Shown: piece after piece, positions 6,416 through 47,262 of the stretch
How positions within the stretch are numbered: the stretch's first letter is position 1
Layout: each line of letters opens with the position of its first letter
DNA from: Amphiscolops sp. MND2022
Lineage: Eukaryota
Direction of reading: 5' to 3'
NCBI GenBank assembly: GCA_964187785.1
Contig: OZ076409.1
Span: forward strand, 38,502,001 to 38,566,000
DNA: 64,000 bases
Translations under genes and position numbers: made by a program
The notes under the pieces: model-generated
Seen by the model: the letters and a program-made list of their open reading frames with translations, nothing else
Database searches by the model: none
Told to the model about the DNA's origin: nothing

Positions 6416-6615
6416 NNNNNNNNNNNNNNNNNNNNNNNNNNNNNNNNNNNNNNNNNNNNNNNNNNNNNNNNNNNNNNNNNNNNNNNNNNNNNNNNNNNNN
6501 NNNNNNNNNNNNNNNNNNNNNNNNNNNNNNNNNNNNNNNNNNNNNNNNNNNNNNNNNNNNNNNNNNNNNNNNNNNNNNNNNNNNNNNNNNNNNNNNNNNN
6601 NNNNNNNNNNNNNNN
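6416..6615. other. Assembly gap (200 N)
   Basis: Run of n characters. Confidence 1.
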
Positions 6616-20809: not shown

Positions 20810-20958
20810 TCTGCGGCGAAATTTCTTGGCTGCTGTTTTTCGAGTTTGATTGTTTCACAATGAATTTCCTCGGATAATTGGGATTGCTGAGAATGTTGGG
20901 ATAAATCCCTTCATTCTGATTGGTTAATCAATCTTTTTAATCCTTTTGATCTGCAGTT

Positions 20959-21214
20959 GTTGACGTTATGTCGACAGCTCTTTTTATTGGCCAAGAAATT
21001 GAAGTAATTCCTTTAACCAAACTTGTCAACGTTATGCTGACGTCATTTTCGCTAGCTTAGCTAACTTTTGTAATTTGTCACCGTTATGATGACGTCATTT
21101 TAGATTACAGGATTAATCTCTTAATCTCTATAACCTTTTTGTCGACGTTATGCCGACGTCAATTTCGTTGGTAATTAGCCAACTTTAATTTTTGTCACCG
21201 TTTTGGTGACGTCA
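20959..21214. promoter_or_regulatory. Array of five 17-bp imperfect palindromes (GTYRMCGTTWTGNYGAC) with abutting CRE-like TGACGTCA sites; putative divergent promoter
   Basis: Motifs at 20959, 21025, 21077, 21141 and 21194 (spacing 66/52/64/53). TGACGTCA at 21038, 21090 and 21207. Lies between the ORF3 ATG (20809, -) and the antisense gene ATG (21266, +). Confidence 0.65.
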
Positions 21215-21265
21215 ATTATGGGTGTTTTCATCTGTAGTTTTACTTTCAGATTCTCTGCTGTTTTG

Positions 21266-25358: not shown

Positions 25359-25607
25359 CATTACGTTATCAGTAACTTGCATTAGTCTGATTTATTGTTG
25401 TAGTTAGTTTGTTGTTTCCGTTTTAATGTATTGTTTTGAATTTGCAATGAGTCGTCGCTATGATGACCATTATAATTGATGTTGTAGTGGTAAAAGGATA
25501 TGTACAGGAGTAGTTAGTAAAAAGAAAAAGAAGAGGGTAGTTGTGTACCCTAATTGAAATTTGTCAAATCGGTTCGATTTGGACTCCTGTCGTTATCTTT
25601 TCTCTTT

Positions 25608-28600: not shown

Positions 28601-30554
28601 TTGCGAAGTTGAACGCTAGCATTTCGATTGATCTCTGGTCTGCCATCTGTAGACAGTGGTATGCTTGGGAGCAATCTAATTTGCAGAACAACTTTTTCCC
28701 TGCTAAGTGTTGGGCTGCGTCCGACAGGGTGCTGACTGGGTGGTTGTTGTTGATGTAATCATCTGAAATTAGGGCGTTTATTTTCCGTAGGTCAACGAGT
28801 AATCGCAGCTTGCCATTCGGTTTGCGTTGTGCAAAAATTGGGCTCGCATATTTTGAGAATGGTAGGGTCGTTATTATGCCGTACCTATGCATTAGTGCTA
28901 ATTCGACTGTTAGATCTTCTTTCAGGTTAATTGGTACCGGCAAGCTTTGCGTGTAAATTGGGCGCTCGTCCTTCGGAGTTAGTTTGACTTTGAAGCTATT
29001 GTTGATTCCGATGTCAAGGCGATGTCGGGCAAAGATATCGTTGTATTCCACTATTGTTTGCTCGAGTTGCTTCCTGTCATTGCCTTCGATTTGAGAACCC
29101 TCCCACTGGAACATGTCGAGGAACTTTTGTCTTGAGTCCTGGTCTTTGGTTGGGTCTAATTTTTCTTTCTGGATTAGTTCACGGATTTCCTTCAGGATCC
29201 GTCGTTGGATTGGCGTATGTTCTTCTTCGTTTCCCGGATTCTCAGGTGTGGGAAACCAGAAATTTTCATCACCCTGTTCAGTTTCGTTGGCCTTCATGAG
29301 TTCATTGACGTACATGTGGGTGTCATCAGGATCGTCTAGCAATTTGAGTGCTGCGGCGTCAACTGGTCGTATTTGTTTCGTGTCTTCAGGTTTGAGGATT
29401 TGTAGTTCTGCCAGCTTTGTATGATTCTTTATTGTATGTGGAAAATCCGTTAGGTTGGCGATTCTGATGTTGAGCCTTTTGTTATGGGCTGTCGCCAGAG
29501 CTGGTGCAACAATGATTGTTGCGGTTTCATCAAATTGTGGTAGTGGTTGTACCGCACCAGTGACGTTATGCAAGTTTGTGGTTATTACTATTGCGTTCAC
29601 TGTTGTGGTTTGTTGGGGTGGTAGGGTTTGATTTCCTTCTGCCATTATTTGGAGCGGTTTCGGGTTGCACTTTTTCATCTCGTCCGTCATGGCTAGCGTC
29701 ATTTCTACGTGCGGGAAATTAATGGTCCCGTTGGCAGTGTCTATTACTGCTTGGTGATTTCTCATGAAGTTCAATCCTATGATGGGAAATGACGTTTTCG
29801 ATAGGATGACGAAGGTGTCCGTGAAGGTATATGTTCCGATGTTGAACTGGATGTCCGCTGTGGCTATTGGTTGCTCTAGTTGTGCGTTTGCGCATTCAAT
29901 CTTGAAAGGAGGTTGAGGGTACTCTTTTATGACGCAACTATCACTGTTCATTTTGATTGCGTTGTAGTCTGACCAGGACATGGCATTGATGAACGCACCG
30001 GAGTCGACAAGTCCATCCATTGTTATTTCACCGAATTCTAGTGGCAAGTACAGCATTCTCCTTCTGTTTTTGAGGATTATAGTGGAGTGGAGAGGTATAT
30101 ATGTTTCTCCATCCTTTTCGGCTACGTACTCCTTGATTGAGTTGAGTGATGTGGGGAAATCGTCTGGGGGCGGAAATGTCTTGGTGAAGCTGTGATTATC
30201 TCCTTCATTTTGTTGTGACGATAGGTGATCGTCGGAGGCGCTTTCATTTTGTTCTACCTGGTTTATAGCGGAGAGTTCTCTGTTGATGGGGGTTAAGTTG
30301 GTAGGACGATTTGCTTGTTGTTTAGGATTGTCCCTGTAGTCTTTGTCGTGAGTGTAGGTGTCTGCTTGTTCGGTTGGTGGATATGGCCTTTTTATAGAAG
30401 CGAGTGCTTGTCGTCTTAGCCAATCTACCGTTGGTGTGCCATCGCACCCTACTGTTGAGTCGTTTGTATAGGTGATGGGGGGATCTGTTGATGAGTACGC
30501 CCTCGCGGCTACGGTTTCCCCGAAACGCAGGCGCGGCGTATCTAGTTTTTTGAT
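25608..30554 (-). CDS. pol: pol polyprotein (PR-RT-RNase H-IN), expressed by -1 frameshift from gag
   Basis: LVDSGA (protease), LDCSQAY and YVDD (RT), TDAS...DNR...ADFLSR (RNase H), H-x5-HPG...CEDC with DILP/SDKG/ERTH (integrase), WTGPY (GPY/F) and YNLRP. Manual translation shows the frame stays open upstream of the 30056 Met back to 30554. Confidence 0.97.
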   Translation of the reverse strand: MKKLDTPRLRFGETVAARAYSSTDPPITYTNDSTVGCDGTPTVDWLRRQALASIKRPYPPTEQADTYTHDKDYRDNPKQQANRPTNLTPINRELSAINQVEQNESASDDHLSSQQNEGDNHSFTKTFPPPDDFPTSLNSIKEYVAEKDGETYIPLHSTIILKNRRRMLYLPLEFGEITMDGLVDSGAFINAMSWSDYNAIKMNSDSCVIKEYPQPPFKIECANAQLEQPIATADIQFNIGTYTFTDTFVILSKTSFPIIGLNFMRNHQAVIDTANGTINFPHVEMTLAMTDEMKKCNPKPLQIMAEGNQTLPPQQTTTVNAIVITTNLHNVTGAVQPLPQFDETATIIVAPALATAHNKRLNIRIANLTDFPHTIKNHTKLAELQILKPEDTKQIRPVDAAALKLLDDPDDTHMYVNELMKANETEQGDENFWFPTPENPGNEEEHTPIQRRILKEIRELIQKEKLDPTKDQDSRQKFLDMFQWEGSQIEGNDRKQLEQTIVEYNDIFARHRLDIGINNSFKVKLTPKDERPIYTQSLPVPINLKEDLTVELALMHRYGIITTLPFSKYASPIFAQRKPNGKLRLLVDLRKINALISDDYINNNHPVSTLSDAAQHLAGKKLFCKLDCSQAYHCLQMADQRSIEMLAFNFASRTFAYKRLAQGLSRALSAFSSFMREYLDKVIKADQCAQYVDDIGIAANSVTQLIRNIRAVFECIRQAGLKLSIDKCHFGVTKVEFLGRTITPQGIAPQDHKIQKFLANVRFPKSKKQVQRYIGFVNYYRNYIPRLSEKLLGFYQLLKADKQIKITEELLDQYKAINTALAEACGLALKQPITGRQYVLMTDASFRASGYALMIEEENDKKLNSKKKTFAPVAFGSKVFSPAQFKMSIYCKEFLAIYHAFLEYSHILWETTLPTLVMTDNRSVTRFFQTKAIPPTLWNACDYVLQFNFHIMHVAGTQNTAADFLSRIDLNPKERVELKIRNDITIRPIQVNLQSTDVADEEQLFFLPDETIETEEEILAQKEQARQNARDEETTKIKLSITETLPIPINKAAYTFGTIKEDARIRVEQDSNQVFKAIKRKLICEEYDKHLLQTDPTAKRLLVHENRLIVKDGVLMRKYYGECGQVTHNQILIPDHLITELLKAIHGQMGKHPGITKMIQECRSKYYYPGLAKKIRQWVMQCEDCIKYKRISNSQIRPKMINNTEHVLGPEDILEIDILPNLPNSAGYQNIVTMIDVFSRYLFAYPTQNTTAKTIGRCIVDVMTRHAYLPTLILSDKGSQFRSEVVTEIAQILEIQISHASTKHAQTIGILERTHASIKTALKISTGERRSMWHKYVQIAVMNYNTTYHETLGCEPSTVFHGRIPYNVLDLKLGIKPKWKTTPNSDIAEQIQKQIDEVRATTKDNIMLSYLKYKKYYDRKASAAPLKINDYCYILNPKADNQSTKFAFQDCIWTGPYIVIKVLSNNNYTIRKTGTRYTQTLHRIRIRPYTPEQRVPDVTVRANEYLPDPEVKVSHNEWYAVSWEMDFGKQIDEHETSIDTKHNQHAEIQEVTNTNDENTTTQMPRNRTNDLNDEAPPSPDFSNLTTDVGDNPYIRRPPPLESPPIPPRSPPTVVGYNPRKTAKYNLRPNPKPNANPDFRRLDAITTTH
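30496..30551 (-). promoter_or_regulatory. -1 programmed ribosomal frameshift signal: slippery A AAA AAC plus downstream GC-rich stem-loop
   Basis: Minus strand TCA AAA AAC TAG ends gag, and pol is in the -1 frame (ATC AAA AAA CTA). TACGCC...GGCGTA encloses a TTTC-GGG-GAAA inner hairpin. Confidence 0.85.
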
Positions 30555-31978
30555 TCATCTGCGGCTTGATTTGTCTGTTGTTGTGCAGAGTTATCTTGTT
30601 TTCTTTCTTGTTGGAAATGTCGTTTAGGTCTCGGGTCGTTTGCCGAGTTAGCTCCGTTCCAACAGTTTTCTGTTTTGTGGGGTTTTCCACAGGTATCGCA
30701 TTTGGAGGTAATCCCGGTGGTGTTTCTGGTATGGCCATTATGTTTTCTTGTTTGTTGCCATTTGTCTCTCCGCAGTTTGCGGCATTCAGCCTTGAAATGG
30801 CCAAATTTATTGCAATAAAAGCAGTACCCTTTTTTAGTGTTTTGGGTAGTGTTTTCGGCTTGTTTGGGCTCAGTTTTTGTTGGGGCTGGTTCTGCTTTAT
30901 TGAGGGGTACCAGAGTTACATCGTCTGGTGCTCCAAGTCCGTTAAGTCGCATTTCTCTCTCTAGGTGTAGGACAATGTCGTTATAGGGCTTGTCTTCGAG
31001 GTATGCCCTATTTAATATTTTCTGCACGTGATCTGGCATTTTCGCGTAGATTGCTTTGTCGATAAATTGCTGAGCTTGTGAACCGAACGCCTCTTTTGCT
31101 GTTTTTTGAAGGACGTCCAGGAATTCGTGGAGTTTCTGTGTCGAGGGATCGAATTTAAGTGCGTCCCATTCACATCTGGCTTTTGCCATCGACAAGTAAT
31201 CTCCGAAGCGTCGTTTGAAAATCGTCATGATCTCATCAAGTGAATCCTTTTTCGTATCTTCGATATTACAAAATGCTTGTAAGGCGTCTCCCCTGAGGAG
31301 GGAGTGGAAGTAGTTTATTTTTTGGATTTCAGTAAGGTGCGGGTACATTTTTATGTTATTCCGAAAAAGGTCTTCGAATAGTTCGAATTTTTCCGACTTC
31401 CCGTCGAAGGTCGGGAGTGACGCCGTGAGTGCTTTTGGCATGGGTAGAGTAGTGCTATCATTTTTATCTGTTGCGAATAAAGTCCTTGCCGCCACTGGAC
31501 GTTCCTTTGACGGCGGCTGGCTCTGAGACCTGGCTTTTGTTCTTTTTGGCTGGTTTGTGGAATCGGTTAGGACTCCTGTCACCATGTTACGACATATCAT
31601 CGGGTCGTTTTGAGTAGAACTTATTCTCACTGATTTTGTGGGAGTGTAAAAACTCCTAGTTTCCTCCTCTACTTCTTCAGTGTTTTCTCTAATAACCCCT
31701 TTTGTTTCAGGCTTAAGGAGTTTCAACATCTCCTTCTGAGATTCAATAAGAAGATTCTTAATTTCTGACGTTATTTCTTCCTTCAATGAAGCCCTCAAAC
31801 TTTCAAGAAGACTATTTTCAATCCGAGGGGACTTGGGTCTAGAAGGCCCAGCTACTTCATCATCCTGATTCAAAGGACAAGAATCCCTTACTACTATAGG
31901 TGAAATCAAGCCTTCACTTACGTTCTCATCGGTGCTTTGCTGATCGTTCTTTCTTTTTTGGCTTCTTGTTGTTGACAT
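30542..31978 (-). CDS. gag: gag (478 aa from first ATG), with a capsid-like region and two zinc knuckles
   Basis: ATG at 31978 (MSTTRSQKRK); LPTFDGKSEKFELFE; CFYCNKFGHFKAEC (CX2CX4HX4C) and CDTCGKPHKTENC. The start lies inside the 5' LTR. Confidence 0.93.
   Translation of the reverse strand: MSTTRSQKRKNDQQSTDENVSEGLISPIVVRDSCPLNQDDEVAGPSRPKSPRIENSLLESLRASLKEEITSEIKNLLIESQKEMLKLLKPETKGVIRENTEEVEEETRSFYTPTKSVRISSTQNDPMICRNMVTGVLTDSTNQPKRTKARSQSQPPSKERPVAARTLFATDKNDSTTLPMPKALTASLPTFDGKSEKFELFEDLFRNNIKMYPHLTEIQKINYFHSLLRGDALQAFCNIEDTKKDSLDEIMTIFKRRFGDYLSMAKARCEWDALKFDPSTQKLHEFLDVLQKTAKEAFGSQAQQFIDKAIYAKMPDHVQKILNRAYLEDKPYNDIVLHLEREMRLNGLGAPDDVTLVPLNKAEPAPTKTEPKQAENTTQNTKKGYCFYCNKFGHFKAECRKLRRDKWQQTRKHNGHTRNTTGITSKCDTCGKPHKTENCWNGANSANDPRPKRHFQQERKQDNSAQQQTNQAADESKN
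31571..31584 (-). promoter_or_regulatory. Primer-binding site (TGGTGACAGGAGTC), probably tRNA-Leu-type
   Basis: Begins TGG immediately after the 5' LTR. The plus strand ACTCCTGTCACCA differs at one base from the metazoan tRNA-Leu(CAG) 3' end ACTCCTGACACCA as I recall it. Confidence 0.75.
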
Positions 31979-34061
31979 TTTGTAGAAAAGTTTGATCTCG
32001 AAGAATTGAATTTCTTTCGAAGGATTTTCTGACAAAGTAGAACAAGTTGAGAGAGTAGAATTGAAAATTCAACTGAATTATGCAATTACAAAAGACTGAG
32101 TCCCTTAATCATCAAATCCTATCATATTTATACCCTCCCAGCATCATTTGATCACGAACAAAGCCCTAATTTTCTTTGAACAATTAGTCATTTCCTGTAT
32201 TTTCGATGAAAAAATCATTTTGTTCCCAATTTTACGTCGACTTTTCGTCAATTTTTGAGACACGATGTTCTTCATTCAGTATTAGTCATCAAGTTTGATC
32301 ATATCATTTCATCTCGGCGTCCTTTTGCTTCCTCCCAAGCAGGAAGTAGATATTACTTCAGTCTGTCAAACCGGAAATGATTCCCTGTTTTACTGCTTTG
32401 GTTCGCGGGAAATTGACGCTGAGATGACGCTGACGTGAACAAAAAATACCTGATTTTGAATTTTGCTTTGACAAAAATGCTATGACTAATTCCAAAATGG
32501 GAATATTTGAACGATGCTAGGACGATATTTTATGAATTTGGACCCAAGCTTTTGCTGAAAGTGAGAATAAAATTGTGATATAAAAATAATATTTGTTAGC
32601 AACATTGTCGAATCGTGTCAAATGCGACAAGATTTATAAAATTAACAGCAACGTTTGTTATATAGCAACATCAACACAACGCGTATAACTGGGCAGCAAC
32701 TGGTCGCACTGGTATAAGAAAACATGAACACAATCACAAATACAGCGCTCAATGTTGTGGAGTACAAAAATGCAAAGTATATGAAAAATACATTTCTGGT
32801 ACATAATAAGCTTCTAGCTGGGGAGAATAAACTGTGACTTCCTAATTAATCTACTGTGGAATCTTGTAATAAGATGGTTTATGCACGGAGATTCCTTTAT
32901 TGTTAAGAGCACATGATAGTTGCTTAACATGAGGTTAAATTATTCTGCTTGTATCAAAATGCATTCTAAATTAAGACCTTAAACCATGTAAAAAATCAGC
33001 AATACATTCATTATACGATTTGCAACAGGCTGCAATTTCCCTTCCTTAAAAAATAACGGCACTTATGCGATGAAAACTTGACTAAATTCAGCAAATTCAT
33101 CCATTTTATTCAATTTCATAAACTTGTCAACGTCATGTTGACGAGTTTTCTTGGCAGAGTTGAATTTCATAAACTTGTCAACGTCATGTTGACGAGTTTT
33201 CTTGGCAGAATAGAGATTTTGACTAGTTTGACGCAATGCTGACGAGTATTTTAGAAATGAGTCTCTCGCTAGTTACCGGAGCAGTGACGTCACACTGGCG
33301 GTAAATTGGAATGATTTCTAGCAATGCTATCAGTATAGGCGGATAATTGGAATGATTTTCTGGTACGCGTATGCGAGGCAGTGACGTCAATTGGTATGCT
33401 TTCAAACTTGTCTGCGTCTTACTGACGACAAATATACATGTACTCCCGTTTCTTTCGCCGCATTGTTTACTCAGCGCAGTATTGACGTCCTAAATCGCTT
33501 TAATTGCTGTTCAAAAGAGTAATTAAGCTGTCTTTCTAAGAAAAGGCTTAGCTACCACGGTGTGCTGTCTCACTGTAATTTCCCGTTTTAGGTCCAAATG
33601 AAATGTAACTTTTCGGGATTAGTTTTGATGTAATTCCATTTAGATTAGCTTATGGTCTCTTTAATCTTGAGGTAGTTTTATTCTAATTTTCAGGTTGTGA
33701 ATGTTTCATTTGTCGTGGTTGACTCGTCCAGACAAACATGCGTGAAATCATTTTTGGATTATTTTGCCTCCTTATTTCATTTCCGCTCAAATTTGCGCGC
33801 GGTAAACGTGTATTTTACATTTCCTTTGTTATTTCATCCAATTTTGCGAGAGCATAAAAATCTAGAACGCGTTCATTAGTTTTATTTGGGATTTTTGCTA
33901 GACAAACTATTATTGCGTTTCGAGTCACAGTTTATTTAAATTTAGTTAGAGTTCGAGTTAATAGCCGAAATACCTTTTCGTGAGTCTTGCGGTGCACCCA
34001 TGTCCGCGCCCAAAACCAACTCTCCTGCATCCGCAATCCAGTCCGGGAGCGGACTGTGACA
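31585..34061 (-). repeat. 5' LTR (2477 bp)
   Basis: Direct repeat of 17705-20181, adjacent to the PBS. Confidence 0.98.
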
Positions 34062-34721
34062 ACAAGTTACTTGGCTTAAAGTCAATTTGCTTAAGTTTTT
34101 CGTCGAGTCATTTAGCTTAAAAGTATCAAGCCAAATGACCATAAAAATAGACCAAATGCATTCAAACTCAAGCAATGGCTAAAAGCAACCTTTCAAAGAC
34201 CAAACGAAATTGAATTAACTAGATGTTCAAGAGACGAAAAACAAATGTTTTAGCATGTTTGTTGATTGCCTCGGCCGTTTTCCTCCTTTCGTCAAGTAGC
34301 AGCCTGTTGAGCGGGGACATATGGCACGTCGCTGCGCTTTGCTTCGCTCCTGCATTTATGGCATTAGGGGTTTGTGAACATAGCGGATTGCGTAATTATA
34401 GAATTTCGACAAAATCTCTCACGCGTTTCAGTTTGGTGATTGTTAGCCGAACAACTCTAAGCCAAGTTAAAATTACCTATGACATTTGCCTCAAAAAAAA
34501 ACTAAGTGATCAAATGCTTTACGCCACATGTTTCAAGCCAAATGATTTTAGGCCAGGTGATTTTAAGCCAAATGGCCAATTACCTCTCTTTCTTGAGCAG
34601 ATAACCTGAAATAAATTTCGGTAGTGATAAGTAGTGTAACCAAAAAAAGCAAAAAAAAACTAGCGTCAAGAACTGGTTTTCCCATGACCCAACGAGGACA
34701 TTGAACTGATAATACTTGTTT

Positions 34722-35337
34722 ACCAAATCATCGTTAAAAAAGAAAACTTTACTGACTGTACGTCGAGTGTGAGTACTTATAAACTTCTGAGTGTGTTTCA
34801 AAAATTTTCTGGAGCATGAGTTGTCGGTTTATCGGAATGAAAGCGTTTTAAAAGTCAACTTTCAACAACAGAACATTTAGCGGCACTTTTGATGCCTACA
34901 CCTACTTGTCGACTTCCGTATCTTGCTTGCCGTGATTTGAAGACATGGTATCCGGCACATTTTGCGGAGAACGGGCGGAAAATTTTGCCAACAACAATCG
35001 GACAAAGTTCTCCTTCGGGCTTCTCAGCGCAATTAATTCCGCACCGAAGAAGTAGGATCGAAGTTCGAACAATACTTTTCTTCCGACAATCACAGTCACA
35101 AGACTCTGAGAAAAGTCAGTCCAGTTTGCGCATTCGAAAAGGCAGGCAAAATTCTCGAAATTTAATGCAAAATGTCATCCAAAGCTACAATAGATCCGTT
35201 GGGAAAGTACATGTGAGCCATGTGGACAACGAACTCCGAGGTTGAAAACATTCAAAATCTGTGGTGTCAGGAACAGATCAAAGTTCCCTATGCGGATGTT
35301 TCAGCTGGCGGTCCCACGTAGTTGTTGATTGTGAAAT
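34722..35337 (-). mobile_element. CRE-like non-LTR retrotransposon RT fragment, copy 3
   Basis: Near-identical to 15769-16386; truncated on the right by the palindromic element. Confidence 0.85.
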
Positions 35338-36622
35338 TGGCTACCACTTGTAGTCAAATCTGTCAAACTTGTTCTGAGATGATAGTAACGTTGAATTGAG
35401 ATTTAGTTACCTCTGGTTGTTAAATTATCGTACAAGAGAATGTTAGGAGAGAATAACTAAAATATTCTGAAATGAACAGTCTTTCAGATGAATTATGATC
35501 AGTTAAAAGCTTTTGAAACACTTACCGAAGAAGTTCTCCTCTTTGTGCAGACCAACCAGCAAAACAATGTGCTAGATATCTTCAATAAGTACGAAATGAA
35601 ACTATTTCCAAAATCCAGTGAAAAAAATTCGCGTGAAAGGAAATGGAAGTGGATGAAATTGAAGTAGAGCCTGAAAATAAAGTTGAGACGAAACGCATGG
35701 AATTTTACAAATCCCACATGCTCTGTAGGCGCTCAGATTCAGAGGAAATTCCAACAATTCCTGTCATGGCCTCATTTAACTCCTTTAAGGACTTGGTGGA
35801 AGAAATGGCAGCTGTGAAGAAACAACTAGACAAGAACTGTGAAGGCATAACCTGAAAAAATATTGAAATGGGTAAGTTAATTTGGATCTCGAAAAAGTTC
35901 AACAGGTTCAAGGTGGCCCTCTCTCACTGTGGATGTTGAAAGTCGTGCGCAAACTCCCTGATACACTTATACAAGCTCTATCTCAGACACCCAAACATTA
36001 GGAAGTCATCCCTATTCCTCCATGCTCTACGTCCTATAATCAACTTTCTAAATGACATCGTAGAATGTTTACCCGAATTCGATGATTTTAATTGATATTT
36101 AATTTGAAAAAAAAACCTTATCAGTGTATTGTCGGTAAAGGAATTGTACCATTGTTTTTCACTCTTTTTCTACCTATTAAACGTCTCTTCATGCCACAGG
36201 CGCGTTGCATAAAGTTATTCTAATGAACAGCTAAAATTGAGGGAATATCAGGACCTAAAAGATATGATAAAAAGTCAAGGAATTTTATCCCGAATAATCC
36301 TTTCCAAGTTAGAAGATTTTGAAAATGAATTAGATTCCTTATCAGAAGATACATTTTTATCAGGAAAAGTTTTTGTATCTTGAACCCAGCAATCAGCAGT
36401 TGCCAAAACAGGTGTAAAAATTGCATTTTAACAATAGTTAAAAATTGAAATCGATTAGACATATGCATGGAAAAATAACTAATACACGCAAGCGCCTTCG
36501 GTAAGCAAAGCTTAGAAAAAAAGTTCAACAATTTTTTTTCTTAAAGGAGAGTTTAGAAATAAGTTTCAAGAAAATTTTTTCTTGAATGAAACTTTTATCA
36601 CTCAAAGAATTTGGTTAAAAAT

Positions 36623-36984
36623 ATGGATTACAAAATGAAGCAACTTCTAATGTACAAATAAAAGAAATACTTAATGAACTAGACACACCGTGTGGAGTGT
36701 ACTTGAGAGACGATAAGTTTACAACTACGGCAGGAATAGTTAACTTACATCCAACTAAAGGAACACACTGGATTATGTTTACAAATCAAAATTACTTTGA
36801 TTCAAATGGCTGTTCTTCACCAATAAACCTAATAAAACAAATTATTGGAGGTGTATATTCAAAATATCAAATGAAGAAAAATGATGGTTACTGTGCTGCG
36901 TATTGTTTGTATGTGTTATATCTCACAAATATAATAGGCTTTAAAATGCAGTACTTAATTTATACTACCAAATTTTATGAATAA
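36623..36984 (+). pseudogene. Adenain-like (Polinton) cysteine protease remnant; mirror copy ~43960-44310 (-)
   Basis: GIVNLHPTKGTHW...YFDSNG...YQ...GYCAAYCLY gives the His/Asp/Gln/Cys order of adenovirus-type proteases. Frameshifted. Confidence 0.75.
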
Positions 36985-37174
36985 TAAATGAAGAAAGTTA
37001 TTACTTATTCAGCTGAATTAAAACTTATACAAAATCCGGTACAAAATTATCCGGATGAGATTGAAAATAATAAGAATAATAATCCGAATGATATCAAAAA
37101 ATATATCAAAACAATACCAAGAAATTATAAACAAGATATCTGCTAGTAGATTTAAACCATTTTTTCTTTAATAA

Positions 37175-38176
37175 ATGGATCTATCAAATTTTGTTACTTA
37201 TGATAAAGAAGAATCGCCTTTGTTGGGTATTGCATAATCTGATTTGGGTATTGTCGAAAATACCTTCTCCAAACCTCAAAAAACTCTCAAATTTAAAATG
37301 ACTAAACAATGGATGATGGGAGAAACAGGTTTAGAAGTTTACAACACTGTATAAAATCTTACTGAAAAGAATAAAAAACTTAAAACTCTTCTAAAAGACG
37401 AACAACTCAAATCAATGAACATTGAAACTCAATTAGAAAAGAATGTTGAGTATTTATATAATACTTCCGGTAAAATAGAAAAAACTAATGAACTTATAGC
37501 TGATAGGTATTCTGAAAATAAGAAACTTACTAAAACGATTTTGGTTATATAAAGAAAATAATTGGTCGATTTAAATTCGATACCGAAGGCGCTTCACGTA
37601 AGGAATGTATCGATACCGAAGGCGCTTCACGTAAAGATAATATAAATTTTCCTGAATTTGAATTGAAAATGATTTCTTTGAAATTGAGTTGACACCAGGA
37701 GTATATGAATTATTTGATATAAATGATACCATCAAGCAAATACTTTCTGATTCTGATTTTGGACTCAACATATAAGCAGATACAAAATCATTGAAATCGG
37801 TTCTTACAACTTCTAATAACAAACATTTTTTTCTGAACTTAACACCCTTTTAGGATTTACAAACACCAACTACTCAGAAGGAACTCATAAATCAGAAAAA
37901 CCAGTTATGATATCAACCACAGACAAAGTTCATCTTAAGTGTGATTGGGTTGATGGTTCAATTGTTAATGGTATGCGAGAACAAATATTATTTAGTTTTA
38001 ATCTTAGTGCCCCTCCAGGATATGGAATTATAGAAGAACCTAATAGTGTTTTGTACAAAAAGATAAACAAAACACGACTGGATAACGTCCAATTTTCCCT
38101 TGAAGTCTCCAATCATAACCCAGATGATTTCAACTCCGAAACATTGACATTTACAATTCTAAATATCAAGATTTAA
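37175..38176 (+). pseudogene. Minor capsid (penton)-like remnant; mirror copy 42690-43739 (-)
   Basis: C-terminal VHLKCDWVDGSIVNG..QILFSFNLSAPPGY.IIEEP...DFNSETLTFT and internal IELTPGVYEI resemble Polinton single-jelly-roll minor capsid proteins (by recall). Confidence 0.6.
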
Positions 38177-38189
38177 GTCAAATAAATAA

Positions 38190-38590
38190 ATGAGCTTCAA
38201 TAAATTCAAAACATTGCATATTGTGTTGGTGAAAAACATTAATCCGCTGCCACAAAAACTCGTGGAGATATTACTCAAAATAAAAAAAACTGGCATGTCA
38301 GTTAAACTATTTAGAGGTACTTGTTCAACTTGTGAAAGAAATTAGTCACTTGTAGTATCAGATCAAACTGTACAAGCGGAAGGATTGGGTAACTTCGTTC
38401 TTCGCTTGGGAAAGCCGCCAAGAATGTTGGAAAGAAAATACTCAAAAAGCCTGGAAGAGCACTCGAAATATTGGCAAATATTGGAACTGCAGCAGCAAGT
38501 AAAAATTCAAAACTTATTGCCGCAACTTCACCTGATTCTATAAAATTTGTTCATCAACAAAAGGGTTTATATTTGGGTGAAATTAAATAA
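38190..38590 (+). pseudogene. Small basic Polinton-associated protein remnant (CxxC plus amphipathic EGLG..LGK segment); mirror copy ~42290-42680 (-)
   Basis: Reads ...FRGTCSTCERN...QAEGLGNF..LGKAAKNVGKKILKKPGRALEILANIG with frameshifts. Confidence 0.45.
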
Positions 38591-38619
38591 TTAAATTAAA
38601 ATTCAAAATTCTTATGAAT

Positions 38620-39532
38620 AATAAAGGTATTCAATTCATAACCGAGATGATTTAGAGAAAAAAAATTTGCGAGAAACTAAATCCTTACTCCGCAAAGAAA
38701 GAATAAAAGAGAAACTTGGAAAGCAAAACTTTCATTATGATATGGAAGAAGTTTTTGAACCCGTTACTGCAAAACAGGCGGAAGCTACTGAAAACCAGAA
38801 ACAATTATCTGAAAAACAAATACACGCGCTACGTACAGAGTGAAGCAATACAACAAAGTTGTGATATAATAAATAAAAATGAACAAAAATCTATTAATTA
38901 ATTAGATGAAATTACTAACCGTAACAATCAACTTGGTACAGATCTTGTTTATTTAAACCAACTTGATTCTAGTATTGTTAAAATAGTTTCTAACCTCCTC
39001 AACATCCAAAGTCAATTCAGATTACAACCCGTGGAAGGTAATCCACAATTACTCACAGTTAACCACACTAATCCTCGACTAGTACAAATCAATGGTTCAA
39101 CGATGACTTTCGAGAATGATAACACATATAATTTAAATGATTCGGGTCTTGGTATTTTACAACTAATACACAAATAGAAGAAGAAATACATAATGAGAAC
39201 CTAATTTATATTTTTTTAGAAGATATATCTTATAATTTAAATTATGGAGCTAAAAAATCAACGAGATGTTATATCATTAATGATTTGATTAATCAATATA
39301 AGTACAATTTGGGAGTGGATTCAATTCGTATATGTTTCTTCCATCTGATCCAGGTGAGCTTGTAGTTCAACTTAAACTAATCGTGTTAGAAAAAATAGGA
39401 ATTACTGATAATCCTATGCTTAGTGAACAAATCATTGCAATTACAGACAAGCTCCTGGAGTATGAATGTATTGCAACAAGTCAACATCAAAAGATGCAAA
39501 GCACCTTCGGTATTACGAGCTCCTTCAGTTAG
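38620..39532 (+). pseudogene. Polinton-associated ORF remnant ending in the FLPSDPxELV motif; mirror copy ~41330-42260 (-)
   Basis: MFLPSDPGELVVQLKLIVLEK...ITDKLLE (39332-39532) resembles a motif common in Polinton accessory proteins. The mirror ORF 41519-41818 is collinear. Confidence 0.5.
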
Positions 39533-40661
39533 ATTGCTCAAAAACGGATCAGTTTGTGGATTTAAGATTTTGTACTCCGGTATATGTTCATTACAAATCT
39601 TATGTTTTTAACCATTTTCACCTTCTAACCTGTTTATCACTAAACAATTATATTTTTCTTTCCATGCTTCTCTGCATAAACTTTTGAATTCATCATAAGA
39701 CATATCAAAACCAGCTGTGTCACTGTATATATAATCTACATCTTTCAATGTTTGTTGAAAAAAGTTATTATATTCGAATTGTTTCTAATTGTTTTTTTAG
39801 GTAAATCAAAGTATGACTGTGATAAACAATAAACATCTAAATCATCATGCCTCACCCTAGTAAAAATTGATTTAATAATTTCTGATTACTATCCAACATA
39901 TCATCAACTACAACACAGCAATTTTGAAAAGCTTGTATTGTTCTATCTTCTAGATCTCTCACTGAAACATCTAATTGTATGTTCTCGTATTGTTCCGGAA
40001 ATCTAGGTATTTTTTTATTTTTTGTTCAGGGTTATTTAGGCGAATTAATTGTAATTTGTTTAAATCAAATCGGTCTTACAACAAAATGATGCACCAACAA
40101 TTAATACTCTATTTTTTTCATTTTTATTATTTATAATACATTCATTATTGATAATTTAAATATTACTTTCATCATTTTTATTTATAATATTATAGCTCTG
40201 CTTATCATCATTTATATATTGCTCTTGTGAAGTGAATCACTAAAAATCACTAAGAGCATTATTTGAGCACTGAGCCTATAGGGCTACACTTAAACCATCA
40301 TGCATTTAGTGAAATTGCTTAGTGACTTAGTGATTTTTTACTGAATAACTGAAGTGTTTAATTTGTTATAAAAACAGTGAAAACTCTTTTTGTGCCGAAT
40401 GTGGTAATAAAAAGAAATGCAAGGATTGTAATATAATGAAGACAGACTCTTATTCGTACAAAAACGGTAAAATGTATAGTATGAACGTTTCAATAAAAAT
40501 GAATGTTTCAATAAAAAGTAGATGTGTGAATACTGTAATCGTGAATTAAATAGGACATATTTATCAAAACATATCGAGAGATGCTTTATCAAGATTCATA
40601 AGTCTGCTTATCATAATATAAATATTTTGATATAAATGAAGATAAGCAGAGCTAAATTATT

Positions 40662-41310
40662 ATGAATGACAATGATGAAAGTAATATTAAAAATAATATT
40701 GATGAAAATATTATTATGAATAATATTGATGAAAATGATAGAACATTAATAGTTGGTTCATCATTTTGTGGTACGACCCACTTGTTATTAAACAAATTAC
40801 AATTATTTCGCTTGGACAACCCTGAACAAAAAATAAAAATAATAACTAGATCTCCGGAACAATACGAGAACATACAACTAGATGTTTCAGTGGAAGAAGA
40901 TCTAGAAGATAGAACAAAACAAGATTTTCATAATTGTTGTGTTGTATTTAATCATATGTTGGATAGTAATCAGAAGTTAATAGATTTTTTACTAGGGGAA
41001 GACATGATGATATGGATGTTTATTATTTATCACAGTCATACTTTGATTTACCTGAAAGAACAATTAGAAACAATTCGATTAAAATAATTTTCAGTGAACA
41101 AACATTGAAAGATGTAGAACATATATAAATAGACATAGCTGGTTTTGACATGTTTTATGATGAATTCGAAAAGCTATGCAGAGAAGCATGGAAAGAAAAA
41201 AATAATTGTTTTTTAAGAAACTGGTTAGAAGATATAAATGGGAAAAACATTTGTAATGAATCTAATCCGGAGAACAAAATCTTTATTCCACAAACTGATC
41301 CGTTTTAGAA
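40662..41310 (+). pseudogene. A32-like DNA packaging ATPase remnant; mirror copy ~39690-40110 (-)
   Basis: Degenerate Walker A LIVGSSFCGTT and Walker B CVVFNH. After a frameshift it reads RGRHDDMDVYYLSQSYFDLPERTIRNNS. Confidence 0.75.
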
Positions 41311-44300
41311 CAAGCTAACTATAGGAGCTTGTAATACCGAAGATGCTTTTTATCTTTTCATGTTGACGTGTTGTAATACATTCATATTCCAGTAGCTTAT
41401 CTGTAATTGCAGTGATTTTTTCGCCAAGCATAGGATTATCATTACCTAAAATTTTTTCCAACACGATTAATTTAGGTTGAACTACAAGCTCATCTGGATC
41501 AGATGGAATAAAAGTTTACTAATTAAATGCACTCCTCAAATGATACTCATAGTGGATAACCAAATCTTTAATTATATAATATCTCGTTGATTTTTTATCT
41601 CCGTAATTTAAATTAAAATTCATATCTTTTAAAAATTGATGAATTAGATTCTCATTATGTATTTCTTCTTCTATTTGTGTGTTAGTTATAAAATACCAAA
41701 GACCCGAATCATTTAAATTATATGTGTTACCATTCTCGAAAGTCATCGTTGAACCATTGATTTGTACTAGTTGAGGATTAGTGTGGGTAACTGTGAGTAA
41801 TTGTAGATTACCTTCCACGGGTTGTAATCTGAATTGACTTTGGATGTTGAGGAGGTTAGAAACTAATTCAACAATACTAGAATCAACTTGGTTTGAATTA
41901 ACCAGATCTGTAACAAGTTATTACGGTTAGTAACTTGATCATATTCATTATTAGATTTTTGTATATTTTTTATTTATTATACCACTACTCTGTTTTATTG
42001 TTTTAGTCGGATTTTCGATTGGTTGTGTTGTTGTTTGAGAAGAATCACGTAGCGCTTGTATTTGTTTTTCAGATAATTGTTTCTAGTTTCCAGTAGCTTC
42101 CGCCTGCTTTGCAGTAATGGGTTCAAACATTTCTTCTGTGTCATAATGAAAGTTTTGATTCCCAAGTTTCACTTTCAATCTTTTTTTGCGCAGTATGGAT
42201 TTAGTTTCTCGCAATTTTGTTAAGCTTTCTAAATCTTCTCGAATATACATTGAATACATTTAATATTCATAATCGTTTCGAACTTTAAATTACATATTTA
42301 GTTTACCCAAATGAAAACCCTTTCCTTGATGAACAAAGTTTATAATATCAGGTGAAGTTGCGGCAATAAGTTTTGGATTTTTACTTTCTGCTGCAAATCC
42401 AATATTTGCCAAACTTTCTAGTGCTCTTCCATGATTGTTGAGTATTTTTTTCCAACATTCTTGGTGGCTTTCCCAAGCGAAGAAAAGAAGTTACCCAATC
42501 TTTCTGCTTGTTTGATCTGATACTATAAGTGACTTTTTTTCACAAGTTGAACAAATACCTCTTGATAGTTTGACTGACATACCAGTTTTTTTATTTTTAG
42601 TATTGGCTCCACGAATATTTGTGGTAGCGGAATAATGTTTTTCACCAACACATCATCAAATTTTTTAAAATTTCTTGAAGCTCAATTATTTATTTAACTT
42701 GAATGTTGATAATTTGTATTGTAAATGTCAATGTTCCGGAAATGAAATCAACTGGGTTATGGTTGGAGTCTTCAAGGAAAAATTGGGCATTATCCAGTTG
42801 TGTTTTGTTTATCTTTTTATACAAAACGTTTTTAGCTTCTTATATAACTCCATATCCAGGAGGGGCACTAAGATTAAAACTAAATAAAATTTGTCCTCGC
42901 ATACCATTAACAATTGAACCATCTACTTAATCACACTTAAGATGAACTTTGTCTGTGGTTGTTATCATATTTAGTTTTTCTGATTTATGAGTTCCTTCTG
43001 AGTAGTTTGTAAATCCTAAAAGGGTGTTAAGTTCAGAAATAAAGTGTACGTTATTAGAAGTTGTTAAAACTGATTTCATTGATAATGTATCTGCTTGTAT
43101 GTTGAGTTCAAAATCAGAATCAGAAAGTATTTACTTGATAGTAATATTTATATCAACTATTTCATATACTCCTGGTGTTAACTCAATTTCAAAGAAATCA
43201 TTTTCAATTCCAAATTCAGGAACATTTATATTTTCTTTACGTGAAGCGCCTTCGGTATCGATAGATTCCTTACGTGAAGCGCCTTCGGTATCGAGTTTAA
43301 TTCGATCACGTATTTTTTTTGAGGAATTAAAATAGTTTCTAATAAGTTTCTTGTTTTTATAAGAACTATCAGCTATAAATTTATTAGCTTTTTCTAAATT
43401 ACCGGAGGTATGATATAAAACATCAACATTCATTGCAAGTTGAGTATCAATGTTTAATTTGAGTCGTTCGTCTTTTAGAAGAATTTTAAGTTTAGTATTC
43501 TTTTCAGTATTGTTATATACAGTGTTGTATTCTTCTAAACTTGTTTCTCCCATCTTCCATTGTCCTGGCAGCTCCAATGGAACACGGAATGAAAAAGATT
43601 CTTTTTGTTTAGTCATTTTAAATTCGAGATTTTCCTGAGGTTTGGATAAGGTATTTTCAACAATACCCAAACTAGATTTTGCAATACTCAACAAAAAAGA
43701 TTCTTCTTTATCATAAGTTGCAGAATATGATAGATCCATTCATTGTAGATTAAATTGCTTATATCCACTAGCAGATATCATGTTTATAAATTCTTGGTTT
43801 TGTTTTGATAGTTTTTTTTCTTGAAATCATTCGGATTATTATTCTTATTATTTTCAATCTCAATCGGATAATTTTTAACGGATTTTGTATAATTTTGAAA
43901 TGAGCTGAATAAGAAATTATTTTCTTCATTTTCTATTCATACAATTTGGTAGTATAAATTTAGTACTGCTTTTTTAAAGCCTTTTATATTTTTTATGGCC
44001 TATGAGATATAACACATACAATCAGTACGCTGCACAATATCTATCATTTTTCTAAATTTGAGATTCTGAATAAACACCTCCAGTAATTTGTTTTATTAGG
44101 TTTATTGGTGGAGGGCAGCCATATGAACCAAAATAAAATTGATTTGTAAACATAACCCAGTGTGTTCCTTTAGTTGGATGTAAATTAACTATTCTTGCCG
44201 TAGTTGTAAAATTATCATCTCTCATGTACACTCCTAAGGGTGTGTCTAGTTCATTGGGTATTTCTTTTATTTTTACATTAGGAGTTGCTTCATTTTGTAA

Positions 44301-45610
44301 TCCATATTTTCAAACAAATTGTTGGAAAGATAAATATTTCATTTAAGAAAAAAAATAGTTGAAGTTTATTTCTAAGCTTTGCTTTAAGAAAAGATTTTTG
44401 TTGAAATTGTTTTTCTAAGCTTTGCTTACCGAAGGCGCTTTGCGTGTAAAAGTTATTTCTCCATGAATGTGTCTCATCGATTTCATTTTTTTAATATTGT
44501 TAAAATGGACTTTTTACACCTGTTTTGGCAAGTGCTGAATGGGTTCAAGATACAGAAAACTTTGTTTTTGATAAAAATGTACCTTCTGATAAGGAATCTA
44601 ATTCATCTTCAAAATCTTCTAATTTGGAATGAATTATTTGGGCAAATTTTCCTTGATTTTTTATCAGTTCTTTTAATCCCGACATTTCCTCAATTTTAGC
44701 TGTTCACAAGAATAAACTTTTTGCAACGCGCCTGTTGCATGAAGCGACATTTATTAGGTAGAAAAAGAGTGAAAATTATTGGTACAATTCCTTTATCATC
44801 AATACATTGAAGAGGTTTTTTTTCAAATTATTTATCAGTTAAAATTATCGAGTTTGGGTAAACATTCTACGATGTCATTTAGAACGTTGATATTAGAACG
44901 TAGAGCATGGAGAGGTAGTGATGACTTGCTAATGTTTGGTGGTCTGAGATAGAGCTTTTTATAAGTGTATCAGGAAGTTTGCCTACAACTTTGAATTTTC
45001 ACAGTGAGAGAGGGCTTCCTTGAACCTTTTGAACCTTTTCGAGATGCAATTTAATTTACCAATTTCAATACTTATTCGGATTATGCCTACACAGTCTTGT
45101 CTAGTTGTTCCTTCACAGCTGCCATTGCTTCCAGCAAGTCCTTAAAAGAGTTATATGAGGCCATGATAGGAATTGTTGGAATTCTCCCTGAATCTGAGCG
45201 CAGAGAGAGCATGAGGGGTGTGTAAAAATCCATGCGTTTCTTTTCAACTTTTATTCTCAGGCTCTACTTCAATTTCTTCCACTTCCATTTTGCTTTCAGG
45301 GGAAAATTGTTCACTAGATTTTGGAAATAGTTTTATTTTGTACTTATTGAAGATATCTAGCACATTGTTTTGCTGGTTGGACTGCACAAAGAGACGAACT
45401 TCTTCGGTAAGTGTTTCAAAAGCTTTTAACTGATCACAATTCATCTAAAAGACCGTTCATTTCAGCATATTTTAGTGATTCTCTCCTAATCCTCTCTTGC
45501 GCCATAACTTAGCTACCAGTGGTACCTAATTCCCAATTCAACGTTACTATCATCTCATACCATGTTTGACAGATTTGGCTGCCAGTGGTAGTCAATTTTA
45601 CCGAATATGG

Positions 45611-45641
45611 TAGATTTGGCTACCACTGGTAGCCAAATCTA
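45611..45641. repeat. Perfect 14-bp-stem hairpin at the right terminus of the palindromic element
   Basis: TAGATTTGGCTACC-ACT-GGTAGCCAAATCTA. Degenerate versions at 45571-45595, 45511-45527 and 35337-35361. Confidence 0.9.
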
Positions 45642-46550
45642 AAAAACATATGGTGCACAGCCAAATAAAAAATTAAACTCAATGCTACTTACTGTGCACC
45701 GTTAATTCCATAAACTGCATCAAAAATATAAAAACAAAATAAACTCACAAAACCAAAATTTGGTGATTTTCTTCTTCTTTCTTCCTGATGCAGCAATAAT
45801 TGTACGCCCAGGAAGAGCCAGGAATAATTGTACGCCCAAGAATATCCAGAATGAAGATCCGGGATTATTTGTACGTCCAAGAAAACACCAGAGGGAATAA
45901 TCGTAATTGAATTTCATTCAGGCACTGAAAAAGAAAGAAAAATTGGTATCTGTTTTCTAGACGTATTTTTTATTTATGCGTTGAAAATTTGCATGGTGGT
46001 TTTAATATCGACCACTTGTGTTACCAATTTGATGCACATGGCGTGACTTCGAAAAAAATTTTCTCGTCAAGTTTGTCTGGATGTCTATTTGTGTTATCGC
46101 ATTCTTATCATCCATACCAAATTTTTTAGTTGCAAAGAAAGCTAATTTTTGATGATTTGCCTTGAAACTTTGCCTAATTTTGATGATTCGACTGGTATGT
46201 TGTGAAAAATGCTTAATTTTTGATAATTGCCTTGAAAATATGCTTAATTTGTAACTGCTTACCTTAAAAATATGTTTAATTTTGATCATTTGACAGATAT
46301 TTTGTAAAAATGACTAATTTTAAAGATTCTTTTGAAAATATACCTATTTTTAAATGTTTGCTGTATCAGGATCAGGATTTCGAATACTACTTTTTTGCAT
46401 TAATGTCAGCGATTAACTTTGTTCAGTAGCTTTGCTCATGAGAGGCATTAAGCTTTTAATGTTCTTCAGTGCTTCAAGACCACATCAGCTCAAAAAGAAA
46501 TCCGTGACTTGGCAATCGTTTTCCCGTCCGCTTGTCGGATCAACTTCAAT

Positions 46551-47262
46551 CTTCTTCTTCTGTTTTATCGCCTTGCGGCATCAGTATCGGTTCCGTTTGT
46601 CTTCTTCAGTAAACTGAGGGTTTTGCATTTGTTCGTTGCTTGGTGTCTTGACATGTTTGTAAGCGCTATCAGGGAATCGCATCTCAGGCAGACTCCTTTC
46701 TTCGGGACATATTTTCGAGCTGAAGGCAAGTTTTTCTGTGATGTTTCGAGGCACTTTTTCATGTGGTTCTTCAGTGTGGCTTCTTGTGTGAAAGTCTTGC
46801 CGCATTTCTCGCATTGAGTTTCTTTTTGTTGCGAGTCGTGAAGCCTTTTCCTGTGTATAGCTAGGCCTGCTTTGCTTCTGCACACTTTGTCACAAATCTC
46901 GCATTGAAGGGTGTTTTCGGTTGGTGTTTTCGTCGATTCCCTCCTGTCTCTGATGATTTCATCGGGTTGGATTACGTGGTTGTGGCCTTGCTGTCTCTCA
47001 TATTCTTCGAGGTGTTTTACTCTGTTCCGTACGAGCGCTCTCCACTTGGTTCGATCGGTTATCAGGTGTTCAATATTGTTGGGATCCTCGCCGGCTTCAT
47101 TGATAAGTTTGCGCCAGTATGTTATGGTGTTGCTGTGTGGGAGTTTTTTCGTCTTATTCTCTTCTTCTAGTTTGCTGTACCATCCTAGCACTGCCTGTTT
47201 CACCAACCTGTCATCGTTCATTCTCAGAACGTGGCCCATTCAAGTTCAATCAACTTCATTTA
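46551..47262 (-). mobile_element. 5'-truncated RTE-clade LINE 3' end (ORF 46565-47239) with C-terminal zinc fingers
   Basis: GHVLRMNDDRLVKQ and DRTKWR are typical of RTE ORF2 C-termini; CEICDKVCRSKAGLAIHRKRLH. Short (GAA)n tail. Candidate TSD GATCAACTTCAAT at 46538-46550 and 47263-47275. Confidence 0.8.

Follow-up and report, generated by a model that had tools for sequence, protein, structure and literature searches.

Linear DNA viruses generate snap-back defective genomes that mirror one end region and lose the rest of the genome, non-autonomous elements of the Helitron2/Helentron type have two ends that match each other in their subterminal repeats and hairpins, and CT is a generic Polinton end. 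Fold-back inverted duplications, as characterized in the relevant sections of PMC3907307, possess a single-copy spacer with short inverted sequences at the spacer edge; secondary widening of the spacer is known in inverted duplications (in the part of PMC10766186 that treats it), and ODIRA involves hairpin-capped intermediates (as outlined in PMC10766186 and PMC10766183). Like the animal Polintons or Mavericks (polintoviruses and adintoviruses) and their fossils, at least as these are presented in the pertinent sections of PMC4028283, PMC8097293, PMC8502044, and PMC10748475, the locus analyzed here encodes a single jelly-roll penton and an A32/FtsK-like ATPase convergent on the structural block, along with a protease-like gene, all in intronless, AT-rich genes, and it is decayed by stops and frameshifts, as are 96% of the vertebrate Maverick loci covered there. 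Unlike Polintons, it yielded no pPolB, integrase, or major capsid gene, no target-site duplication, and no (AGT)2 end, its ATPase has an N-terminal zinc-finger region, and its arms are gene-bearing 4.9-kb copies as opposed to the terminal repeats of 100-1,500 bp given for Polintons in those sections.

Here, we describe a 10.3-kb locus, ~95% of which is palindrome, within a window of 64,000 nucleotides (the whole stretch of DNA analyzed) from Amphiscolops sp. MND2022. The reading that we cautiously favor is that hairpin-directed snap-back copying duplicated the morphogenesis end of a Polinton-type element in inverted orientation, as a one-off event, and that the product is now dead. The features of the locus are the following.

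34716-35341, reverse strand: left flank, a decayed retrotransposon piece, presumably non-LTR judging from sequence motifs, overlapping the arm start by ~8 bases
35330-40217, forward strand: left arm, inverted copy of 40630-45602, whose two ends correspond to the hairpin loops of the right copy
35488-36095, forward strand: broken end ORF, in the higher-GC end segment; right counterpart 44835-45444 (reverse)
36619-36984, forward strand: protease-like ORF; right counterpart 44052-44309 (reverse)
36988-37146, forward strand: 52-aa Asn/Lys-rich ORF between the protease-like gene and the penton; right counterpart broken
37175-38176, forward strand: broken penton, left copy; frameshifts, 3 stops, 45-bp deletion
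38190-38590, forward strand: broken basic ORF after the penton; right counterpart ~42290-42690 (reverse)
38625-39532, forward strand: broken gene with a C-terminal FLPSDP motif; right counterpart ~41315-42259 (reverse)
38984-39183, no strand: near-identical tract, 200 bp
39542-40190, reverse strand: broken ATPase, left copy, without the zinc-finger part; several frameshifts
40218-40629, forward strand: single-copy spacer, 412 bp; native sequence upstream of, and continuous with, the right copy
40218-40348, no strand: 130 bp with no gene assigned, containing a 13-bp inverted repeat (40242-40254 / 40326-40338)
40349-41308, forward strand: broken A32-like packaging ATPase, right copy; N-terminal zinc-finger region (40349-40614) in the spacer; frameshifts and stops
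40603-40650, no strand: hairpin A, inner boundary; 21-bp stem (17/21 paired), 6-nt loop 40624-40629
40630-45602, reverse strand: right arm, 4,973 bp; here the duplicated block has its native context
42699-43739, reverse strand: broken penton (minor capsid), right copy; one frame, 3 stops
45562-45649, no strand: hairpin B, outer boundary; 41-bp stem (34/41 paired), 6-nt loop 45603-45608

The mirror-image arms of ~4.9 kb reported in the first-pass annotation were borne out by both alignment methods. A blastn search of the window returned a single inverted match (40630-45601 versus 40217-35331, 84.6% identity), and global alignment of the arms gave 4225 identical positions among 4847 aligned bases (87.2%), with 622 substitutions and 41 gap events. 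The arm boundaries were placed by change-point analysis at 40217/40630 (posterior 0.57, range 40629-40632) on the inner side and at 35330-35335 / 45602-45597 on the outer side. Because the arms are only 87% identical, the palindrome is real and not an assembly echo. The spacer, previously put at ~430 bp and taken to be unique, is indeed single-copy, but it is not an independent unique center, because residues 1-84 of intact ATPases of the family map to 40349-40614, in line with the right-arm ATPase; most of the spacer is the zinc-finger front half of that gene. The layout is one native copy accompanied by an inverted partial copy, the spacer being the native upstream part of the former, and the remaining 40218-40348 probably represents sequence upstream of the ATPase. 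An origin by nesting, with one copy inserted inside the other, was rejected, since a reverse copy of the spacer is absent beyond the right end, as was the notion of ordinary terminal repeats around a unique center, since the center belongs to an arm gene. The initial description had missed that each arm ends, on its outer side, in a 1.2-kb segment with an ORF, and had also missed the two bounding hairpins. Rfam gave no match anywhere in the window.

The duplicated block spans the DNA from loop A to loop B. In hairpin B, each stem arm is palindromic in turn (folding z=-9.4), and hairpins of the A/B class number only 6 in the 64-kb window, 3 of these in the right copy, compared with 1 hairpin in 30 composition-preserving shuffles of the right-copy region. 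A hairpin-directed snap-back origin is argued for because both block boundaries sit on such rare hairpin loops; together with neutral divergence from near-identical copies (see below), this places the snap-back proposal on firmer ground than when it was first advanced. The coincidence at the inner boundary is weak when taken alone, because hairpin A lies within an AT-rich, Asn-coding ATPase linker in which another hairpin lies at a distance of 77 bp. The hairpin-encoded peptides were not found in 119 ATPase relatives, in which this linker is very variable, and the hairpin-B pattern had 0 matches in the viral contig collection. Scans with short patterns gave 2 and 6 loci, with no related gene or DNA there, and these were dropped as chance. 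A palindromic 15-mer has 6 matches in the window (0.38 expected in all), 4 of them near the outer ends.

The gene order proposed at first sight, namely protease-like gene, penton, basic ORF, FLPSDP ORF, and, on the opposite strand, ATPase, was found in both arms. The genes are of the Polinton type, with the penton identified by fold, the ATPase by Pox_A32 matches, and the protease by motifs only. Pox_A32 matched 10 of 33 ATPase relatives (best E 1.9e-6), and the ATPase relatives map onto both arms. The penton relative P0246, which fits the family profile with an E of 2e-74, produced a structure model with a pLDDT of 90.5 that matches the pentons of mavirus, Sputnik, and adenovirus (for mavirus, Foldseek E 7e-12; Z 13.3, rmsd 6.4, 236 aligned); the model of another penton relative, P0008, was poor (pLDDT 55.5) and uninformative, with generic helical matches only. 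The protease-like ORF shows His-Trp, Asp, and Cys motifs, which we take to be of the adenain type, and had no match in Pfam, PHROGs, NCBIfam, or PDB sequences. There was no library match for the FLPSDP-motif gene, and the basic ORF likewise follows the penton in a 1,555-bp JGI contig (L001). Pfam offered nothing useful for the arm ORF pieces, the penton, or the end segment, PDB sequence searches were blank or gave chance-level matches, and in Atlas the penton led to unnamed virus-rich clusters and the end ORF only to sub-0.9 leads. The end segment has a GC content of 37%, versus 29% in the gene block, and lower CpG; its ORF has one relative, P0391 (70-84% identical), among 20 candidates retrieved with a 66-aa query, for which a blank is weak evidence.

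That the arms carry independent indels and stops, as had been noted, was confirmed: the five virus-like genes, compared over 971 aligned codons, have 4 stops that are left-only, 9 that are right-only, and 0 that are common, with stops undercounted because the frames were partly drawn from open stretches. The differences between the arms are distributed over codon positions as 114/111/123 (p=0.71), and dN/dS between the arms is 0.75 (bootstrap 0.58-1.00), with shifted-frame controls at 0.75 and 0.94. Because the differences are even across codon positions and there are no common stops, the arms started out nearly the same and mostly intact, and decayed neutrally thereafter. Between the two arms, the pentons are 77% identical, whereas identity to the 52 full-length relatives does not exceed 71% for one and 68% for the other. 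Neutral divergence alone is no proof of local duplication, because P0391 is about equidistant from the arms (70-84% identical to each, where the arms are mutually 79% identical), and thus near-identical copies existed elsewhere. The tract at 38984-39183, with 6 differences between the arms (0/300 shuffles as low), was probably homogenized by gene conversion between them.

In agreement with the earlier reading, no pPolB, integrase, or major capsid match was detected in the parts without an assigned gene or in the near flanks. In each arm, that space is only ~1.2 kb, with a further 130 bp in the spacer, and there is no room for pPolB, an integrase, or a whole major capsid gene. For pPolB, neither the six-frame translation of the left end segment nor the near flanks gave a Pfam match; for the rve integrase, there was none in the end segment or near flanks by a scan that detects rve in the neighboring LTR element; and for the double jelly-roll major capsid protein, there was no match in Pfam, which also missed the penton and which a remnant could escape. 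No identical 6-8-mer that could represent a target-site duplication occurs among the candidate ends of this old locus with its damaged left end, and the (AGT)2 end motif is absent. A CT at 45641 may mark the close of the right end. On the left, the palindrome lacks the outer hairpin half, and its end was replaced by the retrotransposon insertion, which is younger than the arms because it is 96.8% identical to 15765-16389.

The locus makes no working protein and most likely does nothing. Of the earlier proposal of a fossil defective Polinton-like inverted dimer, the fossil, defective, inverted duplicate stands, and integration or mobilization as one dimer is hypothetical, no target-site duplication having been found and the left end adjoining the younger retrotransposon piece. 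Under hairpin-directed snap-back copying, the parent would already have carried the two interrupted palindromes, which would have folded when displaced as single-stranded DNA. The block might have been released as a hairpin-capped copy and then joined in reverse ~400 bp upstream; alternatively, a perfect snap-back could have been primed at loop A, its unstable tip later being patched with 412 bp from a parental copy and its left end arising by breakage at loop B. Homogenization of the 200-bp tract between the arms would be a later step.

The family is large, with 491 penton and 271 ATPase relatives, many in intact frames, and of 52 full-length pentons, 46 retain both an intact start and an intact end; searches of the viral contig collection with penton, ATPase, and protease queries, and of the genome contig collection, confirmed no relatives. 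Among three putative same-contig protein pairs, the two penton pairs are mutual nearest neighbors (96.4% and 98.2%; SH-aLRT 99 and 98), and the third, an ATPase pair, consists of non-sisters. The "one-off" component of our reading is challenged because the putatively same-contig penton pairs are sisters, and two such pairs out of three hint that duplication of this kind recurs. The locus could accordingly be an old member of a mobile palindromic, helper-dependent Polinton family, an extrachromosomal snap-back that was integrated whole by a helper integrase, with sister palindromes elsewhere in the genome. Apart from the penton pairs, this scenario is favored by a mirror that ends at the strongest hairpin and does not extend into flanking DNA, by the existence of a third end-ORF copy, and by the legible CT end, but we consider it unlikely, if a serious contender, given the ATPase pair, a palindrome known from one locus, the lack of a 6-8 bp target-site duplication among the candidate ends, the absence of the (AGT)2 motif (as defined in the relevant part of PMC8097293), and the missing outer hairpin half at the left end. 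It is quite unlikely that the locus represents an old member of a spreading family of Polinton-like-virus satellites, palindromic and bounded by hairpins, in which the penton, protease, and packaging ATPase are kept and the major capsid protein, polymerase, and integrase are not; such satellites would be morphogenesis-helper- or segment-like, arising again and again through snap-back at internal hairpins of fixed position, and younger members would supply part of the intact pentons and the sister pairs.

The size of the family, the star-like divergence shown by P0391, and the clustered Polinton insertions at one C. elegans locus (described in the pertinent section of PMC11414722) are compatible with two near-identical members of the same burst that inserted close by in opposite orientation, after which deletions removed the DNA between and outside them; this is improbable, however, with both left-arm boundaries coinciding with the hairpin loops of the right copy, host DNA between the arms limited to at most 130 bp, and no separate target-site duplications seen. 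Highly improbable is a composite origin, with a Polinton gene block taken up by a non-autonomous element that ends in hairpins and belongs to a different class (Helentron- or foldback-like); hairpin B and the 1.2-kb end segment would then derive from this carrier and not from a Polinton. The GC and CpG shift of the end segment, the single relative of the end ORF against 491 for the penton, and the palindromic 15-mers near the outer ends point that way; yet no Rep-helicase or transposase remnant is present in the end segment or near flanks, no matching second terminus or partner repeat was found at the spacer end, the short query makes the scarcity of end-ORF relatives weak evidence, and Polinton accessory regions are themselves variable (in the section of PMC8097293 devoted to them). 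A hairpin-RNA locus retained by the host as a source of small RNAs against the Polinton family, as the first-pass annotation had suggested with long dsRNA, is scarcely credible: the structural genes of both arms point inward, so that a read-through transcript would fold back, one tract is homogenized, and the intact pentons would be possible targets, but the divergence looks neutral, changes compatible with G:U pairing show no bias toward either strand (154 vs 135, p=0.29), perfect 21-nt pairing is available in only 326 of 4992 windows between arms that are 87% identical, and at ~70% identity to intact relatives at the protein level, the arms are poor for guide pairing. An assembly artefact, whether a fold-back chimeric read or a collapsed haplotype, is practically inconceivable because a chimeric fold-back read would yield near-identical arms, not the substitutions, gap events, and private stops and frameshifts observed.

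Decayed Polinton fragments are common, and the genes themselves are therefore ordinary. What the locus adds is a mechanistic clue, a duplicated block consisting of the DNA exactly between two hairpin loops, which makes for a testable route to wholly palindromic Polinton derivatives. No description of such derivatives was found in the titles and abstracts retrieved by literature searches; supplementary gene-content tables (e.g., Table S1 of PMC4028283) might include elements that possess penton, ATPase, and protease but lack the major capsid protein. If sister palindromes with intact genes exist, they would represent a helper-dependent element retaining part of the capsid toolkit, which would bear on the way in which viruses, satellites, and transposons separated within the Polintons; a locus without such sisters would amount to a minor fossil rearrangement.

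Compared with Helitron2/Helentron elements, the locus has a strong hairpin at one end, and the partner repeat was not found at the spacer end. It differs from viral snap-back genomes in being integrated and decayed and in having a 412-bp spacer instead of a perfect axis, but resembles them in that one end region is mirrored and the remaining genome is lost. With fold-back duplications, as far as the relevant sections of PMC3907307 describe them, it shares an inverted copy, a native single-copy spacer, and a hairpin (A, 17/21 pairs) at the spacer edge; unlike the fold-back and ODIRA cases presented in these sources, the duplication is on a 5-kb scale and confined to a mobile element. The window contains only two copies, unlike the inverted triplication ascribed to ODIRA, and the loops of 6 nt and stems of 21 and 41 bp contrast with the loops of 40-80 nt and stems of 5-6 bp reported for yeast in the corresponding part of PMC10766186. 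As in ODIRA so described, the block is bounded by two interrupted palindromes. Both junctions lie at hairpin loops, which under ODIRA would have to be palindromes already present in the parent.

The block is one large inverted repeat, as the first-pass annotation had proposed: self-blastn of the window gave a single long inverted match, in which 40630-45601 aligns with 40217-35331 (84.6% identity), and in a global alignment of the arms 4225 of 4847 aligned bases were identical (87.2%). A fold-back read artefact is ruled out by the 622 substitutions and 41 gap events between the arms, a divergence far too high for such an origin. The locus is a real, dead, mirror-duplicated block of Polinton morphogenesis genes with an informative boundary that runs from hairpin to hairpin, and comprises the following features:

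35330..40217, left arm
40218..40629, spacer between the arms
40630..45602, right arm
40624-40629, 6-nt loop of hairpin A, inner boundary of the block; 17/21 pairs
45603-45608, 6-nt loop of hairpin B, outer boundary; 34/41 pairs, folding z=-9.4
Each arm, from the outer end inward: unknown ORF (in the ~1.2-kb end segment), protease-like ORF, 52-aa ORF, penton, basic ORF, gene ending in FLPSDP, ATPase on the opposite strand

The Polinton-type structural genes claimed earlier are confirmed by the penton and the ATPase. Searches with the longest penton piece (43131-43739) recovered 491 relatives among 657 candidates; all of those listed besides the window's own (119/119) came from ENA assemblies, with a median contig size of 206 kb, and 52 of the 120 listed were at least 330 aa long, with starts and ends intact in 46 of the 52. 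A profile search added 3010 more distant representatives. The first penton model was poor (pLDDT 55.5); a second, of the relative P0246 from a 76-sequence alignment (pLDDT 90.5), matched the mavirus penton (E 7e-12; Z 13.3, rmsd 6.4, 236 aligned), as well as Sputnik and adenovirus pentons and minor capsids of Polinton-like viruses and adomaviruses. The ATPase query found 271 relatives among 285 candidates, and Pox_A32 was matched by 10 of the 33 aligned. The penton and ATPase of the originally described gene order stand; the protease is presumed from its sequence motifs, the ORF having no match in Pfam, PHROGs, NCBIfam or PDB sequences. The order penton to basic ORF is also present in a 1,555-bp JGI contig (L001). 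Both penton copies contain a short tandem duplication coding for 'DTEGASRK' (37584-37636 and 43238-43291), and pentons and ATPases of the family have patches like 'TEGAL/TEGAS' in their variable linkers, which suggests a small recurring insert.

Genes of this kind are treated as defining Polinton genes (PMC4028283, PMC8097293, PMC8502044), and the element is derived from a Polinton-type virus, although it is not a complete Polinton. The block has no room for pPolB or integrase and, in agreement with the first reading, neither was matched in its unassigned DNA or near flanks; a major-capsid remnant could have escaped detection, given that Pfam misses the penton itself. Degraded copies are usual, accounting for 96% of vertebrate Maverick loci (PMC8097293), and polB-less derivatives carrying cargo are described from insects (10.1101/2025.02.07.637071). 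Polinton terminal repeats are typically 100-1,500 bp, with target duplications of 5-8 bp (PMC10748475); no target-site duplication was found at the candidate ends of the palindrome.

When the five virus-like genes were compared over 971 codons, differences between the arms were spread evenly over codon positions (114/111/123, p=0.71), dN/dS was 0.75 (bootstrap 0.58-1.00), no different from shifted-frame controls (0.75, 0.94), and the private stops noted at the outset, like the indels, proved real (4 left, 9 right, 0 common). The arms were therefore near-identical and largely intact at the start, and then drifted by ~7% each. Their pentons are 77% identical to one another, and at most 71% and 68% identical to any of the 52 full-length relatives. 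Divergence along the arms is uneven (p=0.01), and 38984-39183, with 6 differences per 200, a value as low as in none of 300 shuffles, suggests gene conversion between the arms. The proposal that transcripts feed small-RNA defence gained nothing from the sequence: G:U-compatible changes did not differ by strand (154 vs 135, p=0.29), and 326 of 4992 21-nt windows were perfect between arms, with no sign of RNA-duplex selection.

The genes lie in DNA of 29% GC, compared with 37% for the outer end segment. The surrounding DNA is full of LTR and non-LTR retrotransposons, which points to a repeat-rich eukaryotic host, probably an invertebrate. A younger 626-bp retrotransposon piece, 96.8% identical to 15765-16389, overlaps the left-arm start by ~8 bases, so this end was modified later than the duplication. 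Other features of the window are:

1-651 and 1074-1725, direct repeat, 652 bp, 96% identity
3282-4820, 14462-16389 and 34716-35341, remnants of a single non-LTR retrotransposon family, all decayed; the last two have 626 bp in common at 96.8%
5515-5646, two overlapping hairpins (stems of 28 and 47 bp) composed of a 15-bp unit, in a MITE-like setting where short repeats occur in both inverted and direct orientation
6416-6615, N gap, 200 bases
17697-34061, minus strand, young LTR retrotransposon; 2,485-bp direct repeats (99.8% identical) containing the gag start, and an intact 1648-aa pol
22494-23207, 23228-23872 and 24021-25358, additional ORFs of that element on the opposite strand, with no convincing Pfam match; the first has a Cys/His zinc-finger-like motif
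45784-45905 and 46157-46359, short tandem repeats (28-32 bp) within right-flank DNA that is AT-rich
46565-47239, minus strand, 224-aa ORF with two C2H2 fingers, presumably a non-LTR retrotransposon tail
52275-56942, tandem array of ~720-bp units, 80-89% identical, one irregular (~55763-56330)

The spacer, previously taken as unique, encodes at 40349-40614 the front of the right-arm ATPase: residues 1-84 of the intact relatives P0160 and P0139 map there, immediately ahead of that gene, so that the spacer is native sequence of the right copy, of which the left arm is a partial copy in inverse orientation. Of the ATPases listed, 103 match Walker A, and in 33 of these a zinc-finger region precedes the ATPase. 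Only 40218-40348 lacks an assignment.

Both boundaries estimated by change-point analysis fall at hairpin loop edges: 40217/40630 for the inner one (posterior 0.57, range 40629-40632) and 35330-35335/45602-45597 for the outer. Snap-back copying, as first suggested, and here directed by hairpins, is the best reading. Six hairpins in the 64-kb window have a stem of ≥20 bp with ≥80% pairing and a loop of 3-10 nt; three lie in the right copy and none in the left, and 30 shuffles preserving local composition yielded one in total against the three observed. Against a hairpin boundary, the linker that holds hairpin A is AT-rich and has a further hairpin 77 bp off, and the peptides encoded by the hairpins were not found in 119 ATPase relatives, among which this linker varies greatly. 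Snap-back copying may have followed either of two routes, indistinguishable here. A hairpin-capped copy of the block could have been set free and then joined back, inverted, a short way upstream, like the hairpin-capped intermediates of the ODIRA model (PMC10766183; PMC10766186); alternatively, a perfect snap-back at loop A would have had its tip later patched from a parental copy and its left side broken at loop B.

Local duplication, in whichever orientation, probably recurs, because equally sized contigs hold sister penton pairs and mutual-best pairs number 27 among ~7,000 possible. Three pairs of listed proteins lie on such contigs, the size match being a fingerprint only: in both penton pairs each member is the other's nearest neighbour (96.4%, 98.2%) and its sister in a quick tree of 78 rows (SH-aLRT 99, 98); the ATPase pair is not a sister pair. 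The ORF of the end segment has one relative (P0391) among 20 candidates, which, being 70-84% identical to both arms, represents a third copy of similar age; the segment may be absent from the main family. The boldest reading, a satellite family retaining penton, protease and ATPase, seems unlikely.

Palindromic or foldback non-autonomous Polintons are described in none of the literature titles and abstracts searched, a set that mostly does not cover subscription papers. ODIRA, as presented in the sources cited, is a partial match: this locus has no triplication, and stem and loop sizes differ. The fold-back duplications described in PMC3907307 are alike in their single-copy native spacer and the short inverted sequence at its edge.
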